Source: a virus (taxonomy: Duplodnaviria > Caudoviricetes). From it: a stretch of DNA of 50,257 nt. The stretch lies in the IMG/VR virus record IMGVR_UViG_3300021090_000030, positions 1-50,257 of that record. The stretch is one strand, 5' to 3'. Shown here piece by piece: positions 2,756 through 11,163 of this stretch; position 1 is the first letter of the stretch, and each line of letters begins with the position of its first letter. The notes under the pieces were generated by a model. That model worked only from the letters and a program-made list of their open reading frames with translations, did not search any database and was not told the origin of the DNA. Both the position numbers and the translations under genes were made by a program.

Positions 2756-3030
2756 GGACGGTATGCCCAGTATCCGATAACTAGGCCGCCACTCTTTCTG
2801 AAAGCATTCATGGCACCATTCTCATAGACTTCTATCGTGCCAATGTACTCTCCATCGCTTACTCCCATACGCCACTCAGACAACGTTGCTTTGTGGTCCT
2901 CACTCAAATGTTCCCAAACAACCTTAGAAATGCCGGCTGCCAAACACTTGACGCCACGAACACCCTCGTTTAGGAAGGCTCGATTGGCGAATTGGTTATC
3001 ACTCGTCTTCTGGTATGTTGTTGTGGCCAT
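2752..3030 (-). CDS. Hypothetical protein
   Basis: 92 aa, AGGAG SD, ATGA overlap. Confidence 0.65.
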   Translation of the reverse strand: MATTTYQKTSDNQFANRAFLNEGVRGVKCLAAGISKVVWEHLSEDHKATLSEWRMGVSDGEYIGTIEVYENGAMNAFRKSGGLVIGYWAYRP

Positions 3031-3373
3031 TGAGATACGCTCCTTTCAGGGTTGACGGTAGTATGGTACCAGCCACAATCTTCAGTTGTTCTAGATCGGA
3101 CGTGTACATAACTTCTTTCATGAGCCGGACCTCTTCAGGACTTGCGTAGAAGAACCACTTAGCCCTTCCATCATCACGTCGTGAAGCACGTCGATTATCT
3201 CGGTTGGCAAATTGGTCAAGCGCCTTCTTTGATATCATATGCTTCATGACACGTGAGCCTTTGAAGGTCGGCTCCATTGTGCTCGGTAGGTCACCCATAC
3301 GTATGGCCGTACGTACCCAGGCTTCCGTTACCTTTAGCTCTTTGGCTGCTTGCGGGATCGTGAACTTAGTCAT
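2999..3373 (-). CDS. Xis/MerR-like HTH protein with RxDGRxK C-terminal motif
   Basis: FTIPQAAKELKVTEAWVRTAIRMGDL; RRDDGRAKWFFY resembles 5583 and 6903 proteins. Confidence 0.75.
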   Translation of the reverse strand: MTKFTIPQAAKELKVTEAWVRTAIRMGDLPSTMEPTFKGSRVMKHMISKKALDQFANRDNRRASRRDDGRAKWFFYASPEEVRLMKEVMYTSDLEQLKIVAGTILPSTLKGAYLNGHNNIPEDE

Positions 3374-4192: not shown

Positions 4193-4440
4193 TTGAGTCC
4201 CTCACTGAAGTGTTCTATTTCTTTGTCGTCTTTGTAGACCGTAGTTGATACGGACATCTCTTCGACCTCGACTGTTGTCAGTTCGGCTCTGAAGTCTGTA
4301 TGCGTGACGATAGCGTCGTTGTACTGGTCAACTGACACCGTATGAATGACGATGTCAAACAAATCTAGGTTGGCACCCCACTGTTCTGCCTCGTCATACA
4401 GCTTGTCGAGGGCCTCGTGCATTGCCGCAGTTGCTTTCAT
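4189..4440 (-). CDS. Hypothetical acidic protein
   Basis: 83 aa, AGGAG SD. Confidence 0.65.
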   Translation of the reverse strand: MKATAAMHEALDKLYDEAEQWGANLDLFDIVIHTVSVDQYNDAIVTHTDFRAELTTVEVEEMSVSTTVYKDDKEIEHFSEGLK

Positions 4441-4742
4441 AATTGTCTCCTATTTCGTTCGCTGTCCATCTGGACGGCAAACACTAAATGGCCGTTGTCG
4501 TTACGGCTACCTTCTTCTACCCAGTGCGCCACACCTTCAGGGGTAATGCGTTTCAAATGTTTTGGATAGTGGTTCGCGAATAAAATTAGTTCGGCACCTA
4601 GTATCTTATGATATACTAGACTGCTGTGATACTCTTTCTCAGTCTTTAGTTTGCCATTCTTTATCCAACGTAGCACTGCAGCCCTGTCTCGGCCTACAAT
4701 GTTTGCTACTTCTTGAACGGTGTACAAAGTACCTGATGACAT
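4437..4742 (-). CDS. Excisionase-like HTH DNA-binding protein
   Basis: LYTVQEVANIVGRDRAAVLRWIKNGKLK. Confidence 0.8.
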   Translation of the reverse strand: MSSGTLYTVQEVANIVGRDRAAVLRWIKNGKLKTEKEYHSSLVYHKILGAELILFANHYPKHLKRITPEGVAHWVEEGSRNDNGHLVFAVQMDSERNRRQL

Positions 4743-5343: not shown

Positions 5344-5493
5344 CTACCGTCCGCAAGGGCCGCCAGGCAAACAACCGTTCAGCGAGCCCAGTATCCACGA
5401 GCCGTCTTCGAACAATGTAATGTGTGGAGCGACGAGGACAATTGTTGCGGCTAAGAGGATTATAACGAGCCAAAACGCTACTCTGTTCTTCAT
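5344..5493 (-). CDS. Small membrane protein (49 aa)
   Basis: Manual translation MKNRVAFWLVIILLAATIVLVAPH...; AGGAGA SD. Confidence 0.6.
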   Translation of the reverse strand: MKNRVAFWLVIILLAATIVLVAPHITLFEDGSWILGSLNGCLPGGPCGR

Positions 5494-5532
5494 GATATCT
5501 CCTTTCCTGATTCATCTTGTTAGTAAACCACG

Positions 5533-5565
5533 AATACCATCGAGCCTTGTTGACTCGATGGTATT
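5533..5565 (-). terminator. 12-bp perfect hairpin downstream of HTH gene
   Basis: aataccatcgag...ctcgatggtatt; poor U tract. Confidence 0.45.
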
Positions 5566-5582
5566 GGTAGCGCCTAACGATA

Positions 5583-5945
5583 TTACTCGATGGCGGCTTC
5601 GGTCTTCACGTTCGCGCGTGCGACGATGCCGGTGAAGGAACCTTCTGCGATCAAGTTCCGAAGGGCATCAGCCTCATCAGCGTTCATGTAGAGCACGAAC
5701 TTGTTGCGGCCGTCTTCTCGACGGGTGTGGCTGGCTGCAGCTGAGCGCCAGGCTTCGAAAGCCTCGACGGTGAACTCGCGCCGCAGCGTCTTGCTGTTCT
5801 CGGCTACAGGGACGAGCTGGCTGACCAGTGCGCCACTGCGAATCGCCTTACGAATGTATAGCGCGCTCAGACCACTCAGCGCGACGGCTGAAGCTATGGT
5901 CAGGTTGGCCTCATTGGCCTCGGATACTGCGTTCTTCTTGGACAT
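5583..5945 (-). CDS. Xis/MerR-like HTH protein, paralog of 6903-7229
   Basis: SGLSALYIRKAIRSGAL and REDGRNKFVLYMNADE; ATG at 5945 with AGGAGA SD. Confidence 0.8.
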   Translation of the reverse strand: MSKKNAVSEANEANLTIASAVALSGLSALYIRKAIRSGALVSQLVPVAENSKTLRREFTVEAFEAWRSAAASHTRREDGRNKFVLYMNADEADALRNLIAEGSFTGIVARANVKTEAAIE

Positions 5946-6124
5946 TGTTGTCTCCTTTTTTGTTGCCGGCATGAGCGGACCGGTGGCCGTTTGGGTCGAT
6001 CTTCTGCCCAGACGGCGCTTCAATACTTTTACGAAGCTGACGCATCATGATGCGCGTGTTCAATAAGACATTGAAACGCCGCTTGGAAAGAAGATGTATT
6101 TGGTTGGTAACGTTCTATGTTATT

Positions 6125-6227: not shown

Positions 6228-6401
6228 TTAGTCTTCCTTGGATTCTGCGTATAGGCGTACGTCGGTAAGGAGGTCTTGGGCATCATCGAAATCCCACCAA
6301 TACTCCTCGCCTTCCTGATGTTCACATTCCGCAATGTACTCCTCAGCTAGGGAGGCAGGAAAGTTTTTTCGTACAAGGGCTAACGCCGCGTTGCGTTCCA
6401 T
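6228..6401 (-). CDS. Small acidic hypothetical protein
   Basis: MERNAALAL... start at 6401 coupled to upstream stop. Confidence 0.6.
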   Translation of the reverse strand: MERNAALALVRKNFPASLAEEYIAECEHQEGEEYWWDFDDAQDLLTDVRLYAESKED

Positions 6402-6402
6402 G

Positions 6403-6540
6403 TTACACCTTCTGAATCTTGACTTGAACGACTTGCACTTTGAAGATGAGGCGCCGGAGGCCGTAGGTGGGATAGGCCCGCTGGCCCTTATCCGCTTCCT
6501 TGAGCATCTTCTGTATTTCATGTACCGTCTTAGTTTTCAT
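6403..6540 (-). CDS. Small basic hypothetical protein (45 aa)
   Basis: Manual translation MKTKTVHEIQK...; AAGGAGA SD. Confidence 0.55.
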   Translation of the reverse strand: MKTKTVHEIQKMLKEADKGQRAYPTYGLRRLIFKVQVVQVKIQKV

Positions 6541-6902: not shown

Positions 6903-7229
6903 TTACTCGGCTTCGGTTACTTTCTGATTCGTGCGTTGAAGCGTCGTAATGAAATCAGAATCTTTCAGAAGTTGCTGAATCGCGGCTTCTTCGTCGGCAT
7001 TCATGTACAAGACGAATTTGTTTCTGCCATCTTCACGCTTGCTGTGAGCGCCGCTGGATGCACGCCACGTTTCAAAGTCGCCTAAGTCGATCCAATTCTT
7101 CTCGATTTTCGAATCGCCGATCAGCTCTTTGGTTACCGGCAATTTGCCATGTGCGATCGCCTTTCGAATATATGAATTCGATAAACCACTGATTTCGATC
7201 GCTTCCTTGATACTAATTCTTTTGTTCAT
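6903..7229 (-). CDS. Xis/MerR-like HTH protein, paralog of 5583-5945
   Basis: ISIKEAIEISGLSNSYIRKAIAHGKL; REDGRNKFVLYMNADE; AGGAGA SD. Confidence 0.8.
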   Translation of the reverse strand: MNKRISIKEAIEISGLSNSYIRKAIAHGKLPVTKELIGDSKIEKNWIDLGDFETWRASSGAHSKREDGRNKFVLYMNADEEAAIQQLLKDSDFITTLQRTNQKVTEAE

Positions 7230-7285
7230 TTTAGTCTCCTAAACTATTTTGTTTTTCAGACGACGCTCGTCTGATTTATATAATT

Positions 7286-7352
7286 ATTATAATACACTAT
7301 CGATTTCATCATACGTGACGTTTGTTACGTTGTTGACGTGACGTTTGTTACG
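7286..7352 (-). promoter_or_regulatory. Early promoter: TATAAT plus two identical CGTGACGTTTGTTACG boxes 23 bp apart
   Basis: ATTATA 7286-7291; boxes at 7314-7329 and 7337-7352. Confidence 0.75.
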
Positions 7353-7616
7353 TTACATCTTTATGAACTTATTGTTATTACTACAATCTAGACAGTAGTA
7401 CGTTGATTCTTCAAAACAACTAAACTTTCCAAATCTACCATAGTTCATCGTAAAATATGTATTACATTTATTACAACGAAAGTTTGGTTCATTACGATTA
7501 TTTAGAAAGTAATCAGCTCTTTTTGGTATGAATCGTTTATTCAACTTCTTTACAGATTGTTTTACAACTTCAGATTCATAATTATTTACATATTGTTTGT
7601 AGTGATTCGTTTTCAT
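7353..7616 (-). CDS. AT-rich small zinc-finger-like protein, probably leaderless
   Basis: CNKC...CLDC; ATG 7 nt downstream of TGT-TATTAT; no SD. Confidence 0.55.
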   Translation of the reverse strand: MKTNHYKQYVNNYESEVVKQSVKKLNKRFIPKRADYFLNNRNEPNFRCNKCNTYFTMNYGRFGKFSCFEESTYYCLDCSNNNKFIKM

Positions 7617-7622
7617 AATACA

Positions 7623-7689
7623 ATAATAACATACAACATAAAGGATTCACCGTGACATTCATCACGTCTTTATGGGTATCTTTGTCACG
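7623..7689 (-). promoter_or_regulatory. Early promoter: extended -10 (TGnTATTAT), perfect CGTGA-N6-TCACG box (7651-7666) and half box 23 bp upstream
   Basis: Same box-to--10 spacing as promoters at 6125 and 7286. Confidence 0.65.
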
Positions 7690-7710
7690 TTGTATATCCA
7701 ACAATAGGTA

Positions 7711-8124
7711 TGAGAATGGTATGAGAAACCGATGAGAAACCGATGAGTGGAGTCTGAGAAGACCCTGAGAAACCAATGAAGGGAGTATGAAGGGAGTATG
7801 AGAAACCCATGAGAAACCCTCAAGTAGTCTGAGAATGGTATGAGAAGACCCTGAGAAACCAATAAGTGGAGTATGAAAGTAGTCTGAGAGACCTCTCATG
7901 TAGTCTGAGAAACCCATTAGAGGCACGTGAGAATGAGATGAGTGGTGAGGGTCTGGTGTGGTTATATGAGAACAAGATGAAAGGCACATTAGAATAGTAT
8001 AAGAAACCCATGAGTATAGTCTGAAAGACCGATGAGAGGTCGATGAGGAACCGATGAGAATAGTCTGAGAACCATATGAGAAACCGATGAAGGGTTGATG
8101 AGGGGTACGTGAGAATGACGTGAG
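7711..8124. repeat. Degenerate tandem array of ~38 units, mostly 11 bp, consensus approx. TGAGAAACCGA/TGAGAATAGTC
   Basis: TGA(G) recurs at 7711, 7722, 7733...7810 and with unbroken 11-bp period from 7967 to 8121; purine-rich + strand. Confidence 0.9.
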
Positions 8125-8184
8125 TTTTTGAGGCCCAGTGCTGTCAGCGTGTCTAATATCTCGACCATACCAAATGCCCATGGT

Positions 8185-8198
8185 AACTAAAATTAGTT
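8185..8198. promoter_or_regulatory. AACTAA-N2-TTAGTT palindrome
   Basis: aactaaaattagtt. Confidence 0.55.
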
Positions 8199-9070
8199 CA
8201 CGGTCTCAGTTCAAAACCGCGGGCAACTAATATCTGATATAGTGCCTTAGAAGGAATGCGTGTCTTGTCGTATATTAGTCCCAACGTATGTCCCTTACGA
8301 TACATGTCAACTGCCATATCAACCTGTTCGACAGGATAGCTTGTGTTTCTGCCTCTAAGTGCAACACCCCGTATACGTAACTCATGGTAGAGCGTGGTTG
8401 GACTAACTCCTGTCTTGAGAGCTATCTCATTTGTGATTATTCCTGCACAGTACATTTCAACCGCCTTATCGAGTCTCTCAACATCAACATTGTAACCCCT
8501 CTTTGCAATTCCCCTGATAGCTAATGCTTTGTAGAGTACCGTGGAAGTGACTCCCGTCGCTACATAAACAACACTTAGAGTCTCCATTTGGATGTACATC
8601 TTAACTGCCTTGTTTAGCTGCGTCAAGCGGACGTTATTTGTTGAGCGATTTGGCATTCCCAACTTCTCTAGCTCTGCATATAACCCCGAAGGAGAGATTC
8701 CTGTCTCCACATAAATCGAAGATACCTTCGCGCCGGCGTTGTACATTGCTACGGCTGTCTGCTTTCGGGTCTCCGTCACTCCCTGTGCCTCAACTGCGAC
8801 GGCACGAATGGGTACGCCCTTTTTGTCTAGTAAGGTATATAGTGTTGCGGGGTTTAGATGCCATTTCCCTAGTACGTCCTTTACAGGCATATCCGACTGG
8901 TAATCTTTGCAAATGGCGTCTGCGTTGTTTATGTCAGGAGTACGACCGTAGGCTCTTAATATTTTTCTGACCGCTGTCTCAGATAAATCGGTGTTCGTAG
9001 TGAACTCTTGCATATCTCTAATCCCCGCGTCGTACATCTCCAGCACTTCAATATCTTGGTCTGTAGTCAT
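8198..9070 (-). CDS. Tandem HTH-repeat DNA-binding protein (about six ~47-aa repeats)
   Basis: Repeated AVxMYxxG...IxxxTGVSxxTLYxxLxxxGIxxR. Confidence 0.8.
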   Translation of the reverse strand: MTTDQDIEVLEMYDAGIRDMQEFTTNTDLSETAVRKILRAYGRTPDINNADAICKDYQSDMPVKDVLGKWHLNPATLYTLLDKKGVPIRAVAVEAQGVTETRKQTAVAMYNAGAKVSSIYVETGISPSGLYAELEKLGMPNRSTNNVRLTQLNKAVKMYIQMETLSVVYVATGVTSTVLYKALAIRGIAKRGYNVDVERLDKAVEMYCAGIITNEIALKTGVSPTTLYHELRIRGVALRGRNTSYPVEQVDMAVDMYRKGHTLGLIYDKTRIPSKALYQILVARGFELRP

Positions 9071-9104
9071 GTTGTGTTCTCCTTTCGATCTTGAATTATA
9101 AATA

Positions 9105-9184
9105 ATTATACAACAGTTAGAAAGAAAAAGCCATTAGAAACTAATCTTAGTCTCCGGGACCTTTGTGTTGCCGTAAGGTACAAT
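9105..9184. promoter_or_regulatory. Divergent promoters: leftward TGGCTT-17-TATAAT (9105-9133), operator 9139-9152, rightward TACAAT (9179-9184)
   Basis: Hexamers and spacing read directly; only gap between divergent genes. Confidence 0.65.
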
Positions 9185-9190
9185 TGTGTT

Positions 9191-9721
9191 ATGAGTGACG
9201 AAGACGAAGATATTGTTAGAGTATGGGATCAACAGCCTGGAGAAGGCGATATATGGTACAGGATATTTACTAAGTACTATTTACCGTTGGGGCAGAAAAG
9301 AAATCTTCGGACTGCATTCGAATATTACCTTCGAATGGAGAAACCTATTGACTACATTGATGTAGATCCCGATAACTTCAAGAACATTCCCGCTCATTGG
9401 ACCCAACATGCATTTAAGTTCGAGTGGGCTAAGCGTGCGTTAGAATTCGATCAGGCCTCTGCTCCGGACTTTTCTATGCTACAAGTAAGTCAAACGTTGG
9501 AGTTCCTACGTGAGCATGCTATGAAAGCTGCATATGCTCTTGTAGAGTCACTAACTAATGAGAGAACTAGGGTCCAGGCAGCCAACTCGATTCTTAATCG
9601 TAGTGGCATTCCTGAGGTTAGTGAAGTAAACCTAAAGTCTGCGGTTTCGATAACTGCAGATGAAATGGCTGCAGCACAAGAAAAGGTCACCGAGTGGATG
9701 ACGCAAAAGAAGAGTGGCTAG
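9191..9721 (+). CDS. terS: Terminase small subunit (putative)
   Basis: Immediately upstream of TerL; WDQQPGE...W...WAKRALEFD pattern typical of a TerS class. Confidence 0.65.
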   Translation: MSDEDEDIVRVWDQQPGEGDIWYRIFTKYYLPLGQKRNLRTAFEYYLRMEKPIDYIDVDPDNFKNIPAHWTQHAFKFEWAKRALEFDQASAPDFSMLQVSQTLEFLREHAMKAAYALVESLTNERTRVQAANSILNRSGIPEVSEVNLKSAVSITADEMAAAQEKVTEWMTQKKSG

Positions 9722-11163
9722 CATGTTCACTGTCGTTCGTATATTTTGTAGATCGGTACGTAAAGATCTACGATGCTACGTCTGGTGGTTGGATTCCGTT
9801 TGAACTTTGGCCCGAACAGGTTCGAGTAGCCGAAGAGCTCGTTAACAACCGATTAGTTGCTATCCTGAAAGCGCGTCAGTTGGGTTTGACGTGGTTGGTG
9901 CTCGCTTACATACTATGGATGATGGTTTTCCATCCGGCAGGCACAATGCTTCTATTTTCTCGTCGTGAAGTAGAAGCTATCTACATGCTGGATAAACGTC
10001 TCAAAGGTATGTATAATCGTCTACCTGAGTGGATGGGAGTACGGTCTATTATTTCGGACAGCGCACACATCTGGGAATTGAGTAACGGTTCAGTCGCTTA
10101 CGCATTCCCAACTACTGCAGGTGATTCGTACACAGCTACTTTGGCTTTTGTAGATGAAGCAGATCTATTGCCTGATCTCGACGATCTGATGTTGGCAGTC
10201 AAGCCAACCATTGATGGTGGAGGCAAGATGATTTTGCTAAGCAGGTCCGACAAAGCAGCTCCGAACAGCCCGTTCAAGAAAATATTCATTGAGGCTTGGG
10301 CCGGCAGAAGTGCTTGGAAAGGTATTTTCCTACCATGGTTCGCTAGACCATCCCGGACTGCTAAATGGTACAAAGACCAAGAAGACGACTTTATGTCTCG
10401 AACTGGAACTAGTGATGGTCTACACGAGCAGTACCCAGCAACTCCTGAAGAAGCTCTGGCACCCAGGTCGCTAAACAAAAGGATTCCGTTTGCATGGTTG
10501 CAGAGATGTTATGTACCAATGAAGGGAACGAGGCATGCTAGTATCAACGGACTTACAGTATACCGAGAGCCACAATTGGCACACTCATACATCATATCAG
10601 GAGACCCGGCTGAAGGAAACCCGACATCAGACGATTCGTCTGCACACGTACTAGATGGTCTGACCCTGGAAGAGTGTGCTATGTTAGTTGGTAAGTTCGA
10701 ACCGCTAATGTTTGCAGAGCAGCTTTTAGAGATTTCGGAGTATTATCGTGACGCAGATATAATGGTTGAACGTAATAATCATGGACATGCGGTTATTGCA
10801 ACAATTCGAACTAAAGAAGACAAAGCACATCTCTTGATGAGAGGTCAAGACGGTCGGTATGGATGGCCACAAACCGGTAAGAGCAAGGCGCACCTTTATT
10901 CAGAGGGTGCTAAGTTACTGAAAGATGGAGCTCCTACGATACATAGTTCGGCAACTTTCCTCCAATTAGCCGATATCGAAGGAAGTACACTAAAAGCACC
11001 AGAAGGAAGTTTCGACGATCAGGCAGTAAGTTATATGTTAGGCGTACTAGCAGCTTCTGCCCCACCAGTACAGAACTTTGGATTCCAGTATGCCAGTAGC
11101 CATAGACACAATTCCAAACTTAACGCCCGTAGACGTCGCCATTCTATCGGCAGTATCAGCTGA
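9694..11163 (+). CDS. terL: Terminase large subunit
   Basis: Walker A KARQLGLT, Walker B FVDEAD, nuclease ISGDPAEG, ERNNHG, DDQAVS. Confidence 0.95.
   Translation: MDDAKEEWLACSLSFVYFVDRYVKIYDATSGGWIPFELWPEQVRVAEELVNNRLVAILKARQLGLTWLVLAYILWMMVFHPAGTMLLFSRREVEAIYMLDKRLKGMYNRLPEWMGVRSIISDSAHIWELSNGSVAYAFPTTAGDSYTATLAFVDEADLLPDLDDLMLAVKPTIDGGGKMILLSRSDKAAPNSPFKKIFIEAWAGRSAWKGIFLPWFARPSRTAKWYKDQEDDFMSRTGTSDGLHEQYPATPEEALAPRSLNKRIPFAWLQRCYVPMKGTRHASINGLTVYREPQLAHSYIISGDPAEGNPTSDDSSAHVLDGLTLEECAMLVGKFEPLMFAEQLLEISEYYRDADIMVERNNHGHAVIATIRTKEDKAHLLMRGQDGRYGWPQTGKSKAHLYSEGAKLLKDGAPTIHSSATFLQLADIEGSTLKAPEGSFDDQAVSYMLGVLAASAPPVQNFGFQYASSHRHNSKLNARRRRHSIGSIS

Follow-up and report, generated by a model that had tools for sequence, protein, structure and literature searches.

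The DNA studied here, hereafter the window, is the entire IMG/VR virus record IMGVR_UViG_3300021090_000030, a linear stretch of 50,257 bp with an estimated completeness of 93% that comes from an uncultured freshwater phage. The first gene of its leftward early arm (P0001, 8198..9070, minus strand) encodes a protein of 290 amino acids that is built from six helix-turn-helix (HTH) repeats, and its stop codon at 8198 lies about 70 bp from the end of an array of ~38 units of 11 bp (38-39 units; 7710..8127, plus strand). The explanation that we prefer, tentatively and while stopping short of calling it probable, is that the protein is an early multi-site DNA binder of the kind represented by the archaeal proteins Cbp1 and Cbp2, and that the array is a lineage-specific accessory binding platform. 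The novelty lies in a multi-HTH family that occupies a fixed slot of phage genomes, together with a lineage that has doubled the repeats and carries an array in two of three cases.

A protein composed of six HTH domains

The repeats R1 to R6 occupy residues 4-40, 47-83, 98-136, 146-186, 197-233 and 247-283. A sliding BLOSUM62 comparison seeded with the repeat at residue 189 found four more copies, at offsets 39, 92, 141 and 239, with scores of 42-77, the next best score being -8; a sixth, divergent copy is located at the N-terminus, and the spacing of the six repeats in this internal comparison is 48-53 residues. The AlphaFold2 model, built on 11 homologs, is all-helical and consists of six three-helix bundles, with helices at 4-14/20-27/31-40, 47-58/63-69/74-83, 98-111/116-123/127-136, 146-160/165-172/176-186, 197-208/213-220/224-233 and 247-258/263-270/274-283. 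The mean predicted local distance difference test score (pLDDT) is 79.5, with values of about 80-90 in the bundles and below 50 at linker residues 91-97 and 144-146, and the predicted template modelling score (pTM) is 0.26. Confident bundles, low-confidence linkers and the pTM value together indicate that the domains are independent, as beads on a string, and the linkers between them are flexible, short and basic. The first-pass annotation of this DNA, made from its letters alone, had described about six repeats of ~47 amino acids with a common motif. Six bundles are indeed found, and the motif AVxMYxxG...TGVSxxTLYxxL..RG fits R3-R6, which are 32-42% identical among themselves, whereas R1 and R2 are much more divergent, with at most 18% identity to any other repeat. 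R3-R6 are 28-40% identical to the matching repeats of related proteins, about as close as they are to each other. Judged from these identities, the mutual similarity of R3-R6 would fit the reading of similar DNA units.

Pfam gave HTH families only, namely HTH_7 (44.1 bits over a cut-off of 23.8, 2.3e-11) and HTH_23, and among the 18,950 models of NCBIfam the sole match was HTH_Cbp1 (28.5 bits, E 1.1e-6). The best phage-family match was phrog_1303 of PHROGs, 'DNA binding protein' (1e-26, over three stretches), a 184-position profile without tested function. In agreement with the first-pass annotation, neither Pfam nor NCBIfam detected a catalytic domain; the N-terminal resolvase domain is not present, all 290 residues being taken up by HTH repeats. 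No terS family was matched in Pfam or PHROGs either, the model is one of independent domains, and a separate terS is located at 9191-9721. From its profile matches and its model, the product is a pure tandem-HTH protein with no other domain, and DNA binding is its predicted activity.

Relationship to Cbp1 and Cbp2

An exhaustive HMMER search recovered 444 representatives of the family at E<=1e-3, 11 of them at E<=1e-30. The closest relatives have 300-377 amino acids and six or seven repeats, and many others have ~150 amino acids and three repeats that match R1-R3. The names that they carry in their sources say little ('DNA-binding phage protein', 'transposase-like protein', 'hypothetical protein'). 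In a set of 50,697 deposited phage genomes no record matches most of the six-HTH protein; the one hit, with 32% coverage and 27% identity, is a Bacillus phage gene annotated 'transcription factor', and the three-repeat relative P0021 has no match in phage GenBank records. A word-indexed protein search with the six-HTH protein as query recovered only itself, searches for viral-contig loci with the single six-HTH protein or a single terL recovered nothing, and a metagenome profile scan added no locus beyond the already known contig. The protein Atlas returned nothing beyond generic multi-HTH clusters, whose scores are also attained by shuffled proteins. Scans of 185,579 species genomes with profiles of the 6-7-repeat and the 3-repeat forms found no copy of the family, and hence there is neither a prophage copy nor a clue to the host.

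The best solved relative is Cbp2 (2LVS). It was matched by the profile of the 6-7-repeat forms (A1) with an E value of 2e-5 and by the 3-repeat profile with 2.3e-5, the alignment being collinear with both Cbp2 domains in each case and, for the 3-repeat profile, with the linker as well, and Foldseek placed it at rank 1 (probability 1.00, E 0.03). HTH_Cbp1 is also the sole NCBIfam match of P0021 (3.1e-8). The score of the six-HTH protein with this model (NF040595) is far below the equivalog cut-off of 140 bits, which places the protein outside the equivalog proper. As far as profile, fold and NCBIfam comparisons can tell, and the three agree, the phage family is a distant relative of Cbp1 and Cbp2 and not a member of their group.

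According to excerpts of PMC3597662, Cbp2 binds the DNA repeats of CRISPR (short palindromic repeats, clustered and regularly interspaced) by means of two HTHs that a basic linker joins; in Cbp1 there are three, and this protein acts with Cren7 to cover CRISPR arrays in a chromatin-like manner and to modulate the transcription that passes along them (excerpts of PMC3597662 and PMC10883916). Both proteins bind double-stranded DNA repeats that recur in long arrays (same excerpts). Like them, the six-HTH protein consists solely of imperfect homeodomain-like HTH repeats on basic linkers, as the Cbp architecture is described in PMC3597662 (in excerpt). The differences are also clear. The phage protein has six repeats, and its family three to seven, whereas Cbp proteins have two or three; it comes from a bacterial virus, whereas Cbp1 and Cbp2 are encoded in archaeal chromosomes (Sulfolobales, Desulfurococcales); its gene abuts the array, whereas the cbp genes are unlinked to their arrays; and, while one Cbp protein binds each of the spacer-separated CRISPR repeats, the 11-bp units are contiguous and do not form a CRISPR array. 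The relationship nevertheless supplies a precedent for linked HTHs that read arrayed DNA repeats. The conserved end of the Cbp-bound repeats is GAAAC/G; the commonest unit in the window contains GAAAC, a 5-mer match that we regard as a curiosity.

Resemblance to the HTH of serine recombinases (Hin, γδ resolvase) lies in the repeat itself, since each repeat scores with HTH_7 and has a three-helix unit followed by a basic segment, and the 3-repeat profile matches the DNA-binding domain of γδ resolvase (1RES) with an E value of 0.0017. Unlike those enzymes, the six-HTH protein is without a catalytic recombinase domain and carries six HTH copies per chain.

The 11-bp array

Each unit of the array contains a conserved core, [A/C]TGAGA(A), and a variable 5-bp spacer, which takes the form of a few recurring variants. 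At lag 11 the identity reaches 0.51-0.53, whereas off-phase values average 0.27 and do not exceed 0.38; over the whole 50 kb, the nine 200-bp segments that score best at this lag start at 7601-8001, and the array is unique in the genome. Phase slips occur near 7820 and 7897. Partial blocks of 33 and 44 bp are contained in the array, the partial 44-bp blocks at 7749-7893 and 8005-8090, and identity at lag 44 is barely raised (0.47 against 0.44 and 0.45). All units have the same orientation, so that TTCTCA would appear in an early transcript. The conserved positions cluster in 5-6 adjacent bases, which is the size of one major-groove contact. In a second run, from another study (X2), contig pieces cover 7413-7738, 7748-7911 and 7994-8144 with 0 differences, and this exact match indicates that the array is not an assembly artefact. 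The annotated position of the array, ~75 bp from the gene, holds with a gap of about 70 bp, and the array is real in two runs.

The array is spanned by an open reading frame (ORF) for 199 amino acids at 7582-8181 (minus strand) because the TTCTCA units contain no stop codon, and gene callers may annotate it. A coding function was considered and rejected since the 11-bp period is not a multiple of three; moreover, the ORF has no family match, and the strand that stays open differs between the window and the related array-bearing locus L003 described below.

Direct repeats of 11 bp are found beside, or as targets of, other DNA-binding proteins. ParR of plasmid R1 has a ribbon-helix-helix fold and is a non-HTH dimer, whereas the model of the six-HTH protein is one of all-helical HTH bundles. 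The likeness is in the DNA: just as 11-bp direct repeats adjoin the six-HTH gene, parC is composed of 11-bp direct iterons next to parR, with one binding unit per iteron and intrinsically curved DNA, and its iterons double as operators (excerpts of PMC2241845). However, parC has 2 x 5 iterons flanking a promoter and the window ~38 in a row; type II partition also requires the ParM motor, and none was found in scans of the window, where no actin-like or other partition-motor family occurs among the 47 and the 38 ORFs scanned. In PhoP-type operators the 11-nt unit has a conserved part and a less conserved part. Operators of Streptomyces PhoP, a regulator of the OmpR/PhoB type, are made of several 11-nt direct repeat units (excerpts of PMC2275107), and this case shows that fields of 11-bp direct repeats are an ordinary arrangement for proteins that bind DNA head to tail. 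There, unlike here, the reader is a host-encoded winged-helix domain that acts on few units, and no such regulator is encoded in the window.

Conservation of the slot and co-occurrence of gene and array

DNA was available for three genomes with 6-7-repeat forms, the window, G001 (locus L002) and G002 (locus L003), and for 18 loci with 3-repeat forms; the latter were reached via a 12-sequence alignment subset, in four of them the downstream sequence is shorter than 1 kb, and several pairs nearly duplicate each other. One order is common to the three genomes: terL and terS face the multi-HTH gene, a variable stretch of 1-1.6 kb follows, and after it come GTGAY-N6-RTCAC boxes with TATAAT and a conserved gene for an HTH protein of 108 amino acids. 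Portal, terL and terS likewise face the multi-HTH gene in L002, L003 and 16 of the 18 3-repeat loci. TerL is 71-74% identical among the three genomes, and the terL of the 3-repeat loci is 52-56% identical to that of the window. The multi-HTH proteins of the two relatives are 32-34% identical to that of the window and 46% identical to each other.

In G002 the same slot contains an 11-bp array with an ATGAGA core (L003 5830-6115), located ~830 bp downstream of the gene and followed by sparser inverted units. The window and L003 hence share the ATGAGA core and the 11-bp register although their multi-HTH proteins are 34% identical. Arrays are present in two of the three genomes with expanded proteins and in none of the 18 loci with the short form, and this is the only positive signal of co-occurrence; the pattern is suggestive, and the sample tiny.

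Several observations weigh against a reading of the array by the six-HTH protein. G001 is 85% complete and encodes a full-length seven-repeat homolog, but it has 0 matches to the TGAGA array at <=2 mismatches and lacks short-period arrays altogether for unit lengths of 7-24 bp; the place of the array is taken by an extra small ORF on the opposite strand (L002 ~5435-5610, minus strand) and three operator boxes. None of the 18 3-repeat loci, within the scope given above, contains an 11-bp array or a TGAGA cluster. From the side of the DNA, the family is encoded in none of 111 viral stretches with three phased TGAGAA units (80 of them with 2-kb flanks) and in none of 62 with four phased ATGAG units. 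A comparison of recognition helices does not bring the window protein nearer to that of array-bearing L003 than to that of array-less L002. The orientation of the units with respect to the gene is opposite in the two arrays, being TTCTCA in the window and TGAGA in the first half of the L003 array. A super-period of 66 or 77 bp, as expected for six or seven distinct readers, is not found in the array. Finally, TerS and the 108-residue protein are equally present in the three genomes, and adjacency therefore does not single out the six-HTH protein. As a separate observation, the extra ORF of L002 looks, when read by eye, like an AlpA/excisionase-type HTH.

The first-pass annotation had proposed a modular system of reader and array, to be checked by the co-occurrence of homologs with arrays. 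That expectation mostly fails, in G001, in the 18 short-form loci and in the 111 and 62 array-bearing stretches, and homologs that occur without arrays (G001; 18 of 18 short forms) argue against an obligate pairing. What remains of the proposal is the tandem-HTH binder, its Cbp relatives and the ATGAGA array of L003, and what speaks against it is the array-less homologs and the missing super-period. Since the family is conserved without arrays, the gene is a stable feature of the clade and the array an optional extra. The pair is thus at most an optional system, not an obligate one, and the array is an accessory of the lineage, not the defining partner of the family.

The pairing had also been presented as one not recognised as a described system. 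A literature search found no description of a six-HTH protein paired with an 11-bp array in phage, subscription journals lying outside its coverage; arrangements of reader and array as such are, however, already known, the precedents for an array with a neighbouring reader being Cbp1/2 with CRISPR repeats and ParR with the 11-bp iterons of parC (excerpts of PMC2241845).

A general class of TGAGA arrays with 11-bp period was considered and rejected. ATGAG-core tandem arrays are common in viral contigs, the 11-bp spacing is only 1.7 times as frequent as a 13-bp control (62 stretches against 37), and the genes that flank 14 other array loci share no common family. Long intergenic 11-bp arrays were seen in the unrelated viral contigs L024 (1950-2230), L048 (1980-2150) and L188 (2001-2214), and further ones in L148 (2001-2170) and L163 (about 1995-2110). 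In L024, blocks of 3-5 units alternate in opposite orientation, and L188, L194 and L157 have one shared unit in 10-20 copies.

Control region, boxes and palindromes

The six-HTH gene and terS are separated by a divergent control region (9071..9190). It contains two TATAAT hexamers on the minus strand (9100-9095 and 9110-9105), and at the equivalent place both relatives have TTGACA or TTGATT, a 17-nt spacer and then TATAAT. A scan for the sigma-70 consensus listed no site within 9071-9190. The first-pass annotation had given the gene a promoter of its own, divergent from terS. A promoter box, ATTAGAAAC, is located at 9133-9141 on the plus strand and reads TTTCTAAT on the strand of the gene, its core TTTCTAAT being conserved in both relatives. 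ATTAGAAAC differs by one base from the commonest array unit, ATGAGAAAC, and ATTAGA variants are present as units in the arrays of both the window and L003.

A perfect palindrome, AACTAAAATTAGTT, lies at the stop codon of the six-HTH gene (8185..8198), adjoined by a weak terminator-like hairpin (8221-8199, minus strand), and an imperfect copy, AACTAATCTTAGTC, lies in the divergent control region (9139..9152). They belong to a set of AACTAA-N2-TTAGTT palindromes at 1086-1099, 1117-1130, 8185-8198 and 9139-9152, two of which are perfect. These boxes were set aside as a candidate since they are not clearly enriched: seven sites with <=2 mismatches were found against 3.0 expected, and 4 of 100 shuffles reach seven.

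Operator-like boxes of the form GTGAY-N6-RTCAC abut the array at 7652-7665 and 7675-7688, and two further boxes of this type, GTAACAAACGTCAC, are placed at 7351-7338 and 7328-7315 (minus strand), just upstream of TATAAT and the next conserved gene. An alignment is possible between the segment 7651-7698 and boxes of L002 (5686-5745), and L003 has similar boxes after its array (6400-6520). In all three related phages boxes of this form stand upstream of the gene for the 108-residue HTH protein (L002 5686-5816, L003 6400-6520). The asymmetric inner part of the boxes is inverted in L002 with respect to the window and L003.

A model for the protein and its array

In the model that we tentatively propose, the product of 8198-9070 (minus strand) would be an early, sequence-specific DNA binder with six HTHs of the Hin/homeodomain type on short basic linkers. 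Its family carries three repeats in most phages and six or seven in the subclade of the window, and its slot is constant, at the head of the early arm and divergent from terS-terL; the clade that bears the family is one of uncultured lytic phages. Several linked HTHs would contact neighbouring direct-repeat sub-sites at once, and the basic target of the family is for that reason probably a small composite site, for which the conserved TTTCTAAT box is the candidate. For a Cbp-like tandem-HTH binder, reading of the array would be the most economical local role. In the phage of the window the adjacent 38-unit ATGAGA array would then add a binding platform of high density. Protein-coated DNA would separate the immediate-early gene from the operator-controlled promoter of the next genes, and the coated array would act as a roadblock, as a sink that soaks up the protein, or as an architectural element. 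The analysis shows the fold, the family, the gene order, the existence of the array and the conservation of its core in two genomes, whereas binding of the protein to the array, its stoichiometry and any effect on transcription or packaging are inferred. The functions suggested in the first-pass annotation, packaging initiation, end protection or segregation, are not indicated by the analysis.

A more specific form of this model, which we consider quite unlikely, has the six modules laid head to tail on the 38-unit array, with one module per unit and about six proteins per array. The resulting phage-encoded, chromatin-like filament, built beside its own gene, would absorb the protein that is made first and prevent read-through to the next early operon until the array is full, and would thus constitute a self-contained developmental timer derived from an ancestral three-HTH regulator that expanded together with its site.

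Alternative explanations

The array could instead be read by another DNA binder of the phage, the six-HTH protein acting elsewhere, for example at the divergent promoter. We hold this to be unlikely, while giving it serious weight, and it has two versions. In the first, the array would be a pac-type packaging site wrapped around a ring of TerS, with one N-terminal HTH per helical turn; in the second, the 108-residue protein or its paralogs would form a head-to-tail filament on it. In SPP1 and SF6 the small terminase G1P binds phased repeats of the pac sites, and head-to-tail binding to direct repeats is seen with Xis and BldC. The first version draws on the position of terS (9191..9721, plus strand; phrog_6299), ~1.1 kb from the array, on a terminase of the T4 headful type, and on TGAGA 11-bp arrays that lie directly upstream of terL in two unrelated phage types (L005/L075, and L065); ORFs of the same size also follow the array of L068, their proteins being without Pfam match. 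The second draws on the 108-residue protein itself (6903..7229, minus strand), whose N-terminus is Xis- and small-terminase-like and which matches the small-terminase family phrog_57 (2.9e-5) as well as excisionase PHROGs. Its gene is conserved just downstream of the array in the window and in L003; more widely, all three genomes with 6-7-repeat forms keep it downstream of the slot, as do 7 of the 18 3-repeat loci. It is, moreover, one of five small paralogs of the early arm with an N-terminal HTH_17 or excisionase-like domain (519-1010, 2999-3373, 4437-4742, 5583-6023 and 6903-7229, all on the minus strand). However, TerS and the 108-residue protein are also present, and similarly conserved, in the array-less G001 and in the 3-repeat clade, and therefore share the co-occurrence failure of the six-HTH protein, and the genes that flank the 14 other array loci have no family in common.

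That the array is an unstable tandem repeat, grown by slippage and block duplication and lacking a dedicated reader, we regard as distinctly improbable. Its partial 33- and 44-bp blocks do indicate growth by duplication, its presence varies among close relatives, and ATGAG-core tandem arrays are frequent in viral contigs, at 11-bp spacing only 1.7 times more so than at 13-bp spacing. Against this origin, the ATGAGA core and the 11-bp register have been kept in two genomes whose flanks no longer align, conservation resides in the core and not in the whole unit, and two runs, each from a different study, gave contigs with an identical array.

Still less probable is an action at the RNA level, in which ~400 nt of C-rich and G-poor transcript with UC motifs every 11 nt would form a Rho-loading, rut-like attenuator between the immediate-early and the next early genes. 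Sites of the rut type are C-rich and G-poor. The transcribed strand of the window from 8150 to 7750 has 25-34% C and 10-18% G (C/G 1.4-3.2), 350 nt of L003 (5950-6300, plus strand) in the same direction have a C/G of 2.6-9.2, and the array occupies an untranslated gap just past the stop codon and the weak hairpin. In the TGAGA-dense first half of the L003 array, however, C/G is ~1 and the units have the opposite orientation; Rho loading needs neither a strict 11-bp register nor a conserved 6-bp core, and Rfam gave nothing significant, its one hit having an E value of 0.84.

It is highly improbable that the array serves an initiator as an origin of replication or as a set of copy-control iterons. 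Its helically phased direct repeats do lie beside the most AT-rich kilobase of the genome (G+C content 0.37, 7001-8000) and near the cumulative GC-skew minimum. However, transcription changes direction at that same minimum, neither a Rep- nor an O-type initiator was found, PolA, primase and helicase are 25 kb away, 38 units are far above usual iteron numbers, and the array is absent from G001.

Genome context

The window is divided into an early arm (9070 down to 1, minus strand), a structural arm (plus strand) with terS (9191), terL, portal and major head protein that extends to 33524, and a replication arm (50257 down to 33580, minus strand) that encodes DNA polymerase A, primase, helicase, a Sak4-like protein, exonuclease, endonuclease VII and a FolE/QueD/QueE/QueC set. 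On a circular map the two minus-strand arms join, and the six-HTH ORF hence becomes the first gene of a leftward unit of ~26 kb that diverges from the late genes. TerL (9694..11163, plus strand) is of the T4 gp17 type and shares ~26% identity with cyanomyovirus gp17. The window has no near relative among deposited phage genomes, the DNA comparison with GenBank phage records giving no match. The phage looks lytic, as no integrase or partition gene was found.

Some further features of the arms were noted. Two of the five HTH_17 paralogs have the motif REDGRNKFVLYMNADE in common. An ORF for 87 amino acids with a CxxC...CxxC, zinc-ribbon-like pattern (7353..7616, minus strand) adjoins the array; it has a relative in the array-bearing G002 (40% identity over 40 amino acids), and none was found in the array-less G001 (85% complete), so that its distribution follows that of the array on the basis of two genomes. 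The segment 37167-40850 (minus strand) encodes GTP cyclohydrolase (FolE), a radical SAM enzyme resembling QueE, and QueD-like and QueC-like proteins, which make up a 7-deazaguanine pathway; a transglycosylase of the DpdA type was not identified in the window. A modified G may accordingly be present in the phage DNA, and the G-rich array would then be read differently in the major groove.

Concluding remarks

If the link between protein and array is wrong, the locus consists of an ordinary HTH regulator beside an unexplained tandem repeat. If the protein does read the array, it would be the first counterpart, in a bacterial virus, of the archaeal array-coating proteins Cbp1 and Cbp2, and, as a single chain in which nature has linked six or seven HTH modules, it would offer a simple model for the co-expansion of modular DNA readers and their sites. 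Even without the link, the 444 representatives found at E<=1e-3 constitute an unnamed multi-HTH family with no cultured member that marks the first early gene in a clade of uncultured phages.

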